Shown here: one piece after another, positions 32,947-36,809 of the stretch
Numbering within the stretch: the first letter of the stretch is position 1
How the letters are laid out: the number at the start of each line of letters is the position of its first letter
IMG/VR virus record: IMGVR_UViG_2913167280_000010
Location: 1-49,852 of that record
Direction: 5' to 3' (one strand)
Length of the DNA stretch: 49,852 nucleotides
Origin: a virus
Taxonomy: Duplodnaviria; Heunggongvirae; Uroviricota; Caudoviricetes
Made by a program: the position numbers and the translations under genes
Notes under the pieces: model-generated
Database searches by the model: none
What the model was told of the DNA's origin: nothing
What the model saw: only the letters and a program-made list of their open reading frames with translations

Positions 32947-32972
32947 AATAAAAAAGGGCCACCAGCGGCCCG
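32947..32972 (-). terminator. Intrinsic terminator hairpin immediately upstream of the holin RBS
   Basis: Minus strand GGGCCGCUGGUGGCCC followed by UUUUUUAUUU. Confidence 0.4.
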
Positions 32973-33296
32973 TAAAAAACACCCCGTCAAAAACACCGGC
33001 ATCCGCAGATGCCCTTTGCGTGGCGTTATTTGATGCGCACCAGATGTGGCGCAAAGAAATGAAATAAGACTTATCGGAAATTAAGGTTAATTTGAGGATT
33101 TAAACCACTTCTGAAGCTTAGTAGTATGAACATGTCCCCGGAAGGGGGCCAATACTTATTATTCTTCATGGACTTTGTCCCGCGGTCTTAATCCGACGAC
33201 CGCGCTACTTTTCACCCTCTCGCAAATTGCTATCCAAAGGACGTTGTCCCACGAGTATTCCTGGATGCTCGTGTCTTTTTTGTCTTGAGAAAGGAA

Positions 33297-33323
33297 TAAA
33301 AAAAACCGCCAGATATGGCGGTT
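33297..33323 (-). terminator. Intrinsic terminator in the Q-to-lysis intergenic region
   Basis: Minus strand ACCGCCAUAUCUGGCGGU followed by U8. Confidence 0.45.
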
Positions 33324-33687
33324 GGTCAATGCAAGGGATGAATTTTTTAATTGTTATTAAACCGAGGCGTCGGGTGCCTCCCGAAGTATTCCGTGTTGTA
33401 TGGATACTGTGGTTTCCCGCTAAACCGACTCTTTAAACCCCCCTCGCACTGAGGAGCGCCTCTGTGGTGCGATTTACAACACCAGAATGATGCATCACCG
33501 ACCCTGCCAGGAAATACAAAATCTCCACCGATAATGCACCATTCTGCTGCCGTAAAAAAATCAGCACTGAGGCTACACCCGGCCTCAAATCATAGCCAGA
33601 GAACAGAATGCTTTTTCAAAACAACCTGCTCTCACGTAATAAAAAAATACGCCAGTGCCGCAATACAATAAGGCTTGTTTCAAATGC

Positions 33688-33841: not shown

Positions 33842-34080
33842 ATTGGTTCTTCAGGGGAGCGATATCACCGAGCAAAGAAGAGTTCCCCCTCAGAACCGTT
33901 TTCGATGATACGATTTAATATTCCAATCGCAACAACACTTTGCGTCAAGTTATGTAAATTTATTTATATGTTTTTATTTTATGTGAATAATTCACTTTCA
34001 CTTAAAATATACATGACAATATATAAACAAATTTATTTTGAAGGAGATTATTAAATGTCGTTTCTTATATAACACCGCAG

Positions 34081-34109
34081 AAACAACAAAACCCGCTCGA
34101 TGGCGGGTT
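34081..34109 (-). terminator. tR'-like terminator about 100 nt downstream of Q
   Basis: Minus strand AACCCGCCAUCGAGCGGGUU followed by a U-rich tract; lies where lambdoid tR' is expected. Confidence 0.4.
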
Positions 34110-36039: not shown

Positions 36040-36066
36040 ACAACAAAAAACCCGCCGAAGCGGGTT
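36040..36066 (-). terminator. Intrinsic terminator downstream of hok
   Basis: Minus strand AACCCGCUUCGGCGGGUU followed by UUUUUUGUUGUUU. Confidence 0.45.
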
Positions 36067-36134
36067 AAGTGCGGGTGCGTTGAGGATGCCTGACACATCA
36101 GAGGTGGCGAGGGATTTCTCCCCCGCCGGGTCTC

Positions 36135-36290
36135 TTACTCCTCAGATTCGTAAGCTGTGAAGACAGCGACCTCCGTCTGACCGGTTCGGATTCGTACCTC
36201 GCAGAGGTCTTTCCTCGTTACCAGTGCCGTCACTATGACGGTTAAACAGATGACGATCAGGGCGATTAACATCGCCTTTTGCTGCTTCAT
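36135..36290 (-). CDS. hok: Hok/Gef-family type I toxin (51 aa)
   Basis: MKQQKAMLIALIVICLTVIVTALVTRKDLCEVRIRTGQTEVAVFTAYESEE, the canonical Hok/Gef TM-plus-periplasmic pattern. Confidence 0.85.
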   Translation of the reverse strand: MKQQKAMLIALIVICLTVIVTALVTRKDLCEVRIRTGQTEVAVFTAYESEE

Positions 36291-36347
36291 AGCCTGCTTC
36301 TCCTTGACCTTTCGGTCCGTAAGAGGCAATCTATATGTGACGAGCAT
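36135..36347 (-). CDS. mok: Mok-like in-frame upstream extension of hok (70 codons)
   Basis: N-terminal extension MLVTYRLPLTDRKVKEKQA precedes the Hok sequence in frame, as in chromosomal mok/hok loci. Confidence 0.55.
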   Translation of the reverse strand: MLVTYRLPLTDRKVKEKQAMKQQKAMLIALIVICLTVIVTALVTRKDLCEVRIRTGQTEVAVFTAYESEE

Positions 36348-36390
36348 ATAGGGGCCTCACTTCGATTTATAGTCGGGTGGGGCTTTTCTC
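36300..36390 (+). ncRNA. Sok-like antisense RNA (approximate, predicted only from locus architecture)
   Basis: Antisense to the mok start/leader where Sok is encoded in hok/sok systems; boundaries not resolved. Confidence 0.2.
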
Positions 36391-36809
36391 TATCTGCCTT
36401 TGGTAGCATGCCCGAGGCAGATAGCCTCAAGCACCCGCAGCAATTCTACTTAACTCCCATAACCTCGCCAATATGAAATCAATCAGAAAGGTGATTCATA
36501 AGAACGATAACAAGACAATAAATTGCCATTACTGCCGCAACAGCCAGCGCACATTTCAGAACCAGCACGATAACCTCCCAGATTTGACGTACACGCGCAT
36601 GATTCAATATGTAGCAACCTATTTCTTGCTTCAATATAAAATCAGGTATTGTTGTATAACTATTTAACTAACTCCCTATCCCCACATCTCAGGCGCTCAA
36701 CGTCTGTGTACGGGGCGTTTTTTAATACCTTACCCCCAGCGGCGAATCGAATACACCACCAGCGCCACCGCCATTGCGATTCCTACCGTGGTGAATGCCT
36801 CAGGCCAGG

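Follow-up and report, generated by a model that had tools for sequence, protein, structure and literature searches.

STnc100 is a prophage small RNA (sRNA) with 11 expressed copies in EDL933, one of which was confirmed by Northern blot, and members of this family accumulate as an RNA of ~200 nt (PMC5331693). In Shiga toxin 2 (Stx2) phages, STnc100 is located 75 nt downstream of stx2 (PMC12370729), and the sRNA has recently been tied by structure to PasD of enteropathogenic Escherichia coli (EPEC) (bioRxiv 10.64898/2026.05.13.724894). PasD is encoded on the late strand; the genes for PasA and PasC are on the opposite strand and lie between an esterase gene and the lysis cassette that follows it (PMC8550237 table S6; bioRxiv 10.64898/2026.05.13.724894). 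Here, we describe a 0.74-kb gene-free segment (positions 33687-32947) in the IMG/VR virus record IMGVR_UViG_2913167280_000010, a member of the Caudoviricetes; the whole 49,852-nt stretch that was analyzed is referred to as the window. The late strand is the minus strand of the window, and the segment is flanked by tRNA genes on one side and lysis genes on the other. This interval is probably a conserved mosaic cassette of noncoding transcription units, as in the Q-to-lysis "moron" region of lambdoid prophages, and one of its parts is an STnc100-like element.

Like STnc100 (RF02076; Salmonella, E. coli), this element lies in the Q-to-lysis slot on the late strand, measures ~170 to 200 nt and ends in an intrinsic terminator; the closing stem, the first hairpin loop GUGCG, the motif GGGAGGCACCCG and the helix layout are also alike. 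It differs in that the window and its orthologs score only 20.8 to 27.3 bits, there is no BLAST similarity, and the middle helices are of different sequence. Moreover, the core is here preceded by a 31-bp hairpin and follows tRNA genes, whereas genuine STnc100 and PasD in EPEC E2348/69 follow a DUF3927 gene and lack the hairpin. PasD1 and PasD2 of that strain (Pearl Mizrahi 2021; Zhu, Shabalina and Storz 2026) are likewise divergent, sub-threshold STnc100-like RNAs on the late strand between Q and the holin gene, with Rfam STnc100 scores of 37.7 and 41.4 bits, respectively. However, they have no detectable similarity to the window element, either by BLAST or with a covariance model built from such elements (R1, described below), and the PasD seed CUUGUGAG is absent here. 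Comparison of the Pas sRNAs (coordinates from PMC8550237 table S6, sequences from NC_011601) with the segment by blastn-short gave only chance matches of 10 to 15 nt.

A second likeness concerns the opposite strand. PasA, PasC and an Esr41-like element are opposite-strand sRNAs upstream of a lysis cassette, an arrangement matched in geometry here by a candidate RNA at 33133-33283 (+) facing 33469-33296 (-). In E2348/69, the Esr41-like element of prophage PP4 is convergent with PasD1, and in PP2, PasA faces PasD2 across the esterase gene. The unit in the window is built of two tandem modules, each a mini-hairpin plus a terminator, and has no sequence or structural similarity to PasA or PasC. 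The Esr41-like element of PP4 is itself a weak match (32 bits against a threshold of 102; locus L018, 3113-3202, minus strand), located on the opposite strand between PasD1 and the holin gene.

Two further systems occupy the same position. Stx phages (P27 with stx2e; 933W-type phages with stx2) use the same tRNA-to-holin cargo site, and P27 has in common with the window a ~85-nt block containing the terminators T3 and T4; here, in contrast, the slot has no toxin or other protein gene, nor a trace of one by tblastn. In lambda, intrinsic terminators that are overcome by Q (tR' and the moron terminators) are likewise placed between Q and the late genes. The present segment departs from this paradigm in having four late-strand terminators within 0.74 kb (T1 to T4) and two more on the other strand.

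The STnc100-like RNA

The late-strand element at 33469-33296 is ~175 nt long and ends at terminator T2 (33323-33298). Its core comprises a closing stem (GAGGCG/CGCCUC), a hairpin with the loop AGUGCGA, a long irregular hairpin and the motif GGGAGGCACCCG. An A/U-rich single-stranded linker (33357-33324), possibly a seed or Hfq site, connects this core to T2, the stem of which (33323-33304) has 8 bp, including five G-C pairs, and is followed by U8 at 33305-33298. Across 28 sequences, the T2 stem is conserved and its loop variable, and linker and terminator together fold with z = -3.07; for the core, z = -1.95. As with STnc100, the element sits on the late strand between Q and the lysis genes of a lambdoid prophage and has an intrinsic terminator at its end.

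The initial annotation of this DNA had proposed that the slot could hold a small RNA and had suggested a covariance-model scan. In that scan, the sole non-tRNA lead was a sub-threshold, full-length match to Rfam STnc100 that ends at the terminator, with 20.8 bits in the window (E = 0.033, segment against all families). The orthologous places in three relatives score 27.3 (L014), 22.9 (L002) and 21.7 bits (L001), and the genuine STnc100 of E2348/69 scores 123.6 bits with the same model. Otherwise, Rfam searches of the segment (E <= 10) and of the whole window (gathering thresholds) returned only tRNAs, sok and RalA, the rest being weak.

For a reciprocal search, 18 distinct cores were aligned with the terminator left out (A5). 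The alignment supports four helices, which are 99% paired, and at four pairs both bases have changed. Such changes include C-G/U-A in the closing stem as well as a double change from G-C to U-A, which favors a long-range CGGG/CCCG pairing. Covariance model R1, built from A5, finds the genuine STnc100 of E2348/69 (locus L017, 694-810) at 27.6 bits and E = 1e-4, the next unrelated match having E > 1; L017 had been fetched for PasC and was not selected by a shared motif. The two RNAs align end to end, with all four helices retained by different base pairs, and the Pa loop GUGCG and the motif GGGAGGCACCCG, which sits beside the 3' strand of the closing stem, are common to both. Intermediates scoring 64.5 and 44.7 bits with R1 occur in locus L058. 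Judged by sequence and predicted fold, the element represents a divergent subfamily of STnc100 that escapes the current Rfam thresholds, and the small RNA that had been suggested for the slot is supported as a distant member of the STnc100 family by both covariation and the reciprocal match.

Two observations concern STnc100-type RNAs more broadly. In L058 (IMGVR_UViG_2734482785_000011, 2560-3640), the unit of long hairpin, STnc100-like core and terminator occurs twice in different flanks; the two copies lie on either side of an A+T-rich promoter-like region and a tRNA-Thr/tRNA-Gly pair, and the terminator of the upstream copy sits where the window has its tR'-like hairpin. Furthermore, a 17-nt motif of STnc100-type RNAs, GGGAGGCACCCGNCNCC, is present in at least 120 viral contigs (IMG/VR loci L019 to L138), with up to four copies per phage spaced 250 to 490 nt apart (four in L029, 2330-3268; two each in L024, L039, L061 and L082). 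Its invariance suggests a sequence-specific function.

The tRNA-Gly trailer and the 31-bp hairpin

Between tRNA-Gly and the STnc100-like core lie two further late-strand structures. In the first, the 3' trailer of tRNA-Gly, small hairpins lie within a 9-bp long-range stem (33659-33651/33569-33563), after which comes U7 at 33560-33554. According to RNAalifold, this closing helix is 99.3% paired across 51 distinct sequences, with one pair occurring as GC in 38, AU in six and GU in four. The domain folds with z = -3.28, its inner hairpin at 33588-33567 was flagged by the terminator scan, and in this structural model it closes the tRNA unit with a branched, terminator-like end (T1).

The second structure is a hairpin of ~31 bp that always lies directly upstream of the STnc100-like core. 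Folded as late-strand RNA, it reaches -42.5 kcal/mol (z = -7.47), compared with -17.3 kcal/mol for the opposite strand. Likewise, when the block-A structure, which comprises both trailer and hairpin, is read on the late strand, 97.9% of its cells pair; on the opposite strand, the share is 79.0%. Nine pairs of this structure are changed on both sides, four of them within the 31-bp hairpin. Because many of its conserved pairs are G·U, the hairpin acts as a late-strand RNA. A DNA palindrome or protein-binding site, or a plus-strand RNA, was rejected as an account of this inverted repeat, since at least seven conserved G·U pairs would turn into C·A mismatches if the other strand were the one that folds. 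This previously undescribed, tRNA-linked hairpin may be an RNase III processing site or a stabilizing element, as its fold would allow.

A candidate antisense RNA

The opposite strand of the segment contains a unit that runs convergently into T2 and may encode an antisense small RNA, although we hold this only tentatively. The short form (~80 nt) begins with a hairpin at 33134-33149, which is followed by an A/U-rich single strand that is conserved (33150-33169), by a mini-hairpin at 33170-33180 and by the terminator hairpin at 33181-33204. The tail of the latter is U-rich, and in a second sequence class of relatives (for example L005 and L011) it is U7-8. A second module, back-to-back with T2, marks the end of a long form (~150 nt). 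Its hairpin at 33250-33273 is taken as a plus-strand terminator because an A run precedes it on the late strand; compensatory changes between haplotype classes preserve the hairpin (AU in 34 and GC in 25 at one pair; GC in 35, AU in 13 and GU in 11 at another), and the U run is kept in all classes.

Across 59 distinct sequences, the five helices of this unit are 96.6% paired with seven pairs changed on both sides, which reflects few haplotype classes. Paired cells amount to 96.6% on the plus strand against 92.4% on the late strand, and folding z-scores on the plus and late strands are -2.85 and -1.43 for the short form and -2.30 and -0.58 for the long form. The terminators of this unit have their U tails on the plus strand only. 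Upstream, the hexamers of a putative promoter are nearly invariant in the 59-sequence alignment (A4), with the spacer and the initially transcribed bases variable.

Terminators and the pre-holin block

Five terminator-like sites were found in the segment, compared with 1.2 ± 1.1 expected from dinucleotide shuffles of it, and a 776-nt stretch folds with z = -5.26. G+C-rich hairpins followed by a U run therefore occur above chance, and these sites are conserved in relatives. The initial annotation had listed two minus-strand terminators, which correspond to T2 and T4 and are both present where it placed them; it had missed the opposite-strand terminators and the 31-bp hairpin. Its account of the upstream side, with Q, a tR'-like hairpin and two tRNA genes preceding the slot, agrees with what is found there on the late strand.

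T4 ends 7 nt upstream of the Shine-Dalgarno sequence of the holin gene. Across 43 distinct sequences, both T3 and T4 are conserved and show late-strand G·U pairs. The ~85-nt block formed by the two terminators precedes two unrelated holin types. In phage P27, this block lies after stx2e and ORF (open reading frame) L27, just upstream of the holin gene, and in other relatives, TerB and DUF3927 genes are inserted between it and the preceding block. The initial annotation had named the interval between Q and the holin gene S as the toxin cargo site of Stx phages, and the interval is indeed a cargo slot, because P27 stx2e, between the tRNA genes and the T3/T4 block, and the TerB and DUF3927 genes of relatives sit there.

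In LT-II enterotoxin prophages that have the segment, the toxin genes lie outside the tRNA-to-holin slot. In SerU-LTIIb (locus L001, KU052038, 1110-4400), the toxin genes follow the endolysin gene, and in JNE23-001 (L012, 4053-5198), they lie between the second holin and endolysin genes, the A subunit being a pseudogene.

Coding potential

The longest late-strand ORFs between 33687 and 32947 encode 56, 51, 43, 34, 32 and 32 aa and start mostly with TTG or GTG. A frame of at least 60 aa exists only if the holin frame is extended in the 5' direction to ATG 33002, across two terminators; this extension aside, the initial annotation was right that the slot has no late-strand ORF of 60 aa or more. 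One 32-aa ORF (33169-33071) keeps an intact frame in 33 of 38 distinct sequences and is frameshifted in the other five. Its variable sites are distributed 15/11/15 by codon position, which is no codon-position bias, it has no Shine-Dalgarno sequence, and its start is buried in hairpins. An ORF-conservation scan on both strands and the codon-position test were negative for small proteins. Similarly, tblastn with 14 cargo proteins of relatives (TerB, DUF3927, esterase, Stx2e, LT-IIb, IraM, MazF and others) gave nothing better than E = 0.04; neither a conserved frame with a coding substitution pattern nor similarity to the cargo of relatives was found.

Several RefSeq and GenBank records of relatives mis-annotate the segment as "hypothetical proteins"; those placed on the late strand have 87 and 103 aa, and those placed on the other strand have 41 and 105 aa. 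The annotated ORFs start at a GTG equivalent to 33567, cross intrinsic terminators and have unrelated C-termini, and their frame is broken in other relatives by 1- to 2-nt indels in a T run. WP_001741616.1, WP_000904532.1, WP_001298832.1 and URC09393.1 (L006, 2619-2930; L007, 2619-2879; L009, 3120-3380; L004, 3115-3240; L002, 4690-5007) are such translations of the noncoding segment across intrinsic terminators and are probably spurious.

The slot had initially been described as empty of coding capacity or as possibly holding a lost cargo gene. The view of an empty slot or a lost gene is not supported: no cargo is traceable by tblastn, the ORFs of relatives lose their frame, and codon-position bias is absent. 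The scar of a lost cargo gene was rejected on the negative tblastn result with the 14 cargo proteins.

Distribution and mosaic structure

Among 5426 complete E. coli genomes, 408 (~7.5%) carry the segment, with all copies chromosomal, an identity of 77 to 99% and a coverage of at least 80% in 215 of the 408. Genomic copies number ~540 in all, and that of E. coli SC418 (NZ_LR778147) is 98.9% identical to the segment. Three signature motifs taken from it each match more than 110 IMG/VR contigs. Two deposited phages carry it, vB_EcoS-683R6 and the LT-IIb prophage SerU, the latter with the whole tRNA-spacer-holin module duplicated. In a scan of one genome per species, Escherichia ruysiae gave the sole credible match, and six matches in non-enterobacterial metagenome-assembled genomes were at about chance level. 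In a literature search, neither this segment nor the spacer of the LT-II prophages was found to be described.

The segment follows the tRNA pair whether the upstream gene encodes a DUF1133 Q, a lambda-type Q or a DNA methyltransferase, and it precedes either a Phage_holin_8 cassette or an unrelated EssD/RrrD cassette. Local BLAST divides it into four blocks, A to D, with boundaries at ~33470, 33212 and 33030, and these blocks are found in differing combinations. By these sequence comparisons, the segment is a mosaic of noncoding modules that recombine independently of Q type and holin type. The initial annotation had held that a conserved spacer in related phages would speak against its proposals for the slot. 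Taken literally, the segment is such a spacer; this does not refute an RNA function, however, because the conservation carries strand-specific RNA structure.

Flanking genes and prophage type

The Q-like antiterminator gene upstream and the lysis cassette downstream lie on one strand, which is the layout of a Q-dependent lambdoid late operon (Table 1). The hairpin at 34110-34080 was not flagged by the terminator scan despite its 7-bp stem and U-rich tail, and no convincing sigma-70 site for pR' was found between Q and this hairpin. Outside the tRNA genes, the only late-strand promoter candidate is TTGCGA-16-TATCAT at 33932-33905, within the A+T-rich island; a conserved TTGAC(G/T) is located upstream in the island, 32 nt before the -10 element. 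From its sequence, this site may be pR' or a separate tRNA promoter.

Table 1. Positions of the elements of the tRNA-to-holin segment and of the features that flank it in the window
Feature	Position	Strand	Description or evidence
DUF1367 and YbcO/DUF1364 genes	upstream of Q	-	
Q-like antiterminator gene	34742-34206	-	Pfam DUF1133 338 bits and Phage_antitermQ 29.9 bits; PHROG "anti-termination protein Q-like"
tR'-like hairpin	34110-34080	-	7-bp stem and U-rich tail UUUUGUUGUUU; read from sequence
A+T-rich island	33850-34070	-	between tR'-like hairpin and tRNA-Thr
tRNA-Thr(UGU)	33841-33766	-	context; segment travels with tRNA pair (synteny)
tRNA-Gly(UCC)	33762-33688	-	context; adjoins segment
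tRNA-Gly 3' trailer domain with terminator-like end T1	33554-33687	-	RNAalifold, folding z, terminator scan
Long RNA hairpin, ~31 bp	33473-33556	-	many conserved G·U pairs; fold and alignment
STnc100-family structured core	33358-33469	-	Rfam match, covariation, model R1
A/U-rich linker and terminator T2	33296-33357	-	3' end of STnc100-like RNA
Second module of opposite-strand unit	33239-33283	+	mini-hairpin and terminator hairpin 33250-33273, tail UCUUUUUUGU; scan: 10-bp stem
Candidate antisense RNA, short form	33133-33212	+	covariation, strand test, fold
Candidate promoter	33099-33127	+	-35 TTTAAA 33099-33104, 17-nt spacer, -10 TAGTAT 33122-33127; putative
Terminator T3	32974-33031	-	compound hairpin (inner stem 33013-32998) closed by CACC/GGUG; U6 at 32979-32974
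Terminator T4	32947-32971	-	GGGCC-GCUGGU-GGCCC, stem 32971-32956; U6 at 32955-32950
Site flagged by scan (inner hairpin of the T1 domain)	33588-33567	-	
Site flagged by scan (inner stem of T3)	33013-32998	-	
Site flagged by scan (hairpin of second opposite-strand module)	33250-33273	+	
First holin gene (Phage_holin_8)	ATG 32930	-	Shine-Dalgarno AGGAG 32943-32939
Second holin gene (Phage_holin_3_7), then M15 endolysin gene	downstream of Phage_holin_8	-	
Block A	33687-~33470		local BLAST
Block B	~33470-33213		local BLAST
Block C	33212-33030		local BLAST
Block D	33035-32947		local BLAST

Elsewhere in the window, the Rfam scan found two RNAs above threshold, the RalA antitoxin RNA (48118-48296, minus strand, 225 bits) and sok (36288-36436, minus strand, 110 bits), which identify the prophage as a Rac-type lambdoid prophage. 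In relatives, a hokD-like gene adjoins sok. In addition, the minus strand has a weak match to isrK at 36045-36126 (30.5 bits; threshold, 50), located after hok/sok and before the DUF1367-YbcO-Q genes; an anti-Q protein of Salmonella Gifsy-1 is under the control of IsrK. The post-Q hairpin AACCCGCC(A/G)TCGAGCGGGTTTT (window 34088-34109) also occurs in K-12 DLP12 (locus L289, 5755-5776), ~125 nt upstream of essD. DLP12 (nmpC/IpeX region) was rejected as a relative, as it has only this hairpin, AACCCGCC.TCGAGCGGGTTTT, in common with the window.

Proposed working and alternative explanations

Q antitermination and Hfq-type prophage sRNAs are both well established, and by analogy with them, it can be outlined how the RNAs of the segment would be transcribed, processed, bound by Hfq and gated. 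In the lysogen, RNA polymerase not modified by Q would make the tRNAs and the hairpin-STnc100-like RNA, starting from a promoter upstream of the tRNA genes (candidate 33932-33905) or leaking past the hairpin at 34110-34080. This unmodified transcription would be halted up to four times, at T1, T2, T3 and T4, before reaching the lysis genes. After induction, Q-modified polymerase would pass all terminators, and the 31-bp hairpin may then serve as an RNase III site that splits the tRNA/sRNA part from the late mRNA. The candidate antisense RNA, being fully complementary to the late-mRNA leader, could damp leaky expression of the lysis genes. Tight Q-dependent gating of lysis, as the initial annotation had proposed, may reasonably be supposed because the stacked terminators before the holin gene are conserved. 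It is doubtful, in contrast, that every part of the scheme operates as drawn, with an sRNA embedded in a tRNA operon and freed by RNase III, an antisense "safety catch" on the late-mRNA leader and four terminators that keep the holin silent in lysogens and set the timing of lysis. If true, it would add a purely RNA-based control layer to the slot that Stx phages use for toxin genes.

Several points weigh against the segment being a cassette of noncoding transcription units. Neither the window nor its orthologs reach the Rfam gathering threshold of 47 bits for STnc100. None of 500 shuffles reaches the covariation score of A5, but this control is not a probability, and the covariation rests on a handful of haplotype classes within one genus and hence on few independent events. 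R1 gives ~23 further IMG/VR STnc100 copies at ~25 to 30 bits, partly by construction, as their loci were chosen by a 17-nt motif that is also in R1, and it has no match at E <= 10 in the PasD loci L016 and L018. Within the segment, no sigma-70-like promoter was called at the scan threshold of 9 of 12 consensus positions; the opposite-strand candidate has 8 of 12. The candidate antisense RNA favors the plus strand only modestly, and in one haplotype (L012 type), pairing is better on the late strand. Finally, the case for gating draws on general knowledge of Q antitermination.

One alternative is a purely cis-acting leader of the late mRNA, in which the hairpins are RNase III/RNase E processing and stability signals of a polycistron comprising the tRNAs and the late genes, and no independent sRNAs are made. 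The 31-bp hairpin, which separates the tRNAs from the late genes, is an ideal RNase III substrate, the late-strand elements have no evident internal promoter, and PasD2 is listed as derived from a 3'-UTR (untranslated region), that is, made from an upstream transcript. However, the STnc100-like core ends in a strong U8 terminator, as free sRNAs do, and its family is found as a discrete RNA (PMC5331693); the opposite-strand terminators, moreover, would be of no use to a late mRNA. As a complete account, the cis-acting leader appears unlikely, although it overlaps the explanation by noncoding transcription units, which it does not exclude.

Equally unlikely is a passive spacer, in which the terminators are real and the rest has no RNA function, being conserved through recent kinship and block recombination. 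Consistent with this, the range is narrow, with E. ruysiae the only credible match among the species representatives; most copies are at least 90% identical; the covariation boils down to few haplotype classes; and the segment has no called promoter and a core of modest folding z-score. Set against this, helices are retained through double-sided changes across haplotypes that differ at 20 to 25% of positions, and the G·U asymmetry shows RNA-level selection on a defined strand. The core also matches genuine STnc100 helix for helix, and the hairpin-plus-core unit recurs in L058 with different flanks. That the slot holds a decayed cargo gene or a small protein gene is highly improbable: the "hypothetical proteins" annotated in relatives and the largely open 32-aa ORF speak for it, but the former run through terminators and lose their frame, the latter has no coding signature, and the cargo-protein searches found nothing.

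Biological significance

In lambdoid prophages, the Q-to-holin interval is the site of Shiga toxin and other cargo, and recent work indicates that it also carries Hfq-dependent sRNAs (STnc100, PasA-D, AsxR) that wire prophages into host regulation. The present locus is this known slot architecture pared down to its noncoding parts. Overall, it is plausible rather than surprising to a specialist and is not a new kind of system; what is new is a divergent STnc100 subfamily, a conserved tRNA-linked 31-bp hairpin and a candidate antisense RNA. If these RNAs are expressed, the sRNA repertoire of prophages would extend to Rac-like prophages of commensal and enterotoxigenic E. coli (ETEC) type, and the locus would offer a simple system to probe what STnc100-type RNAs do.

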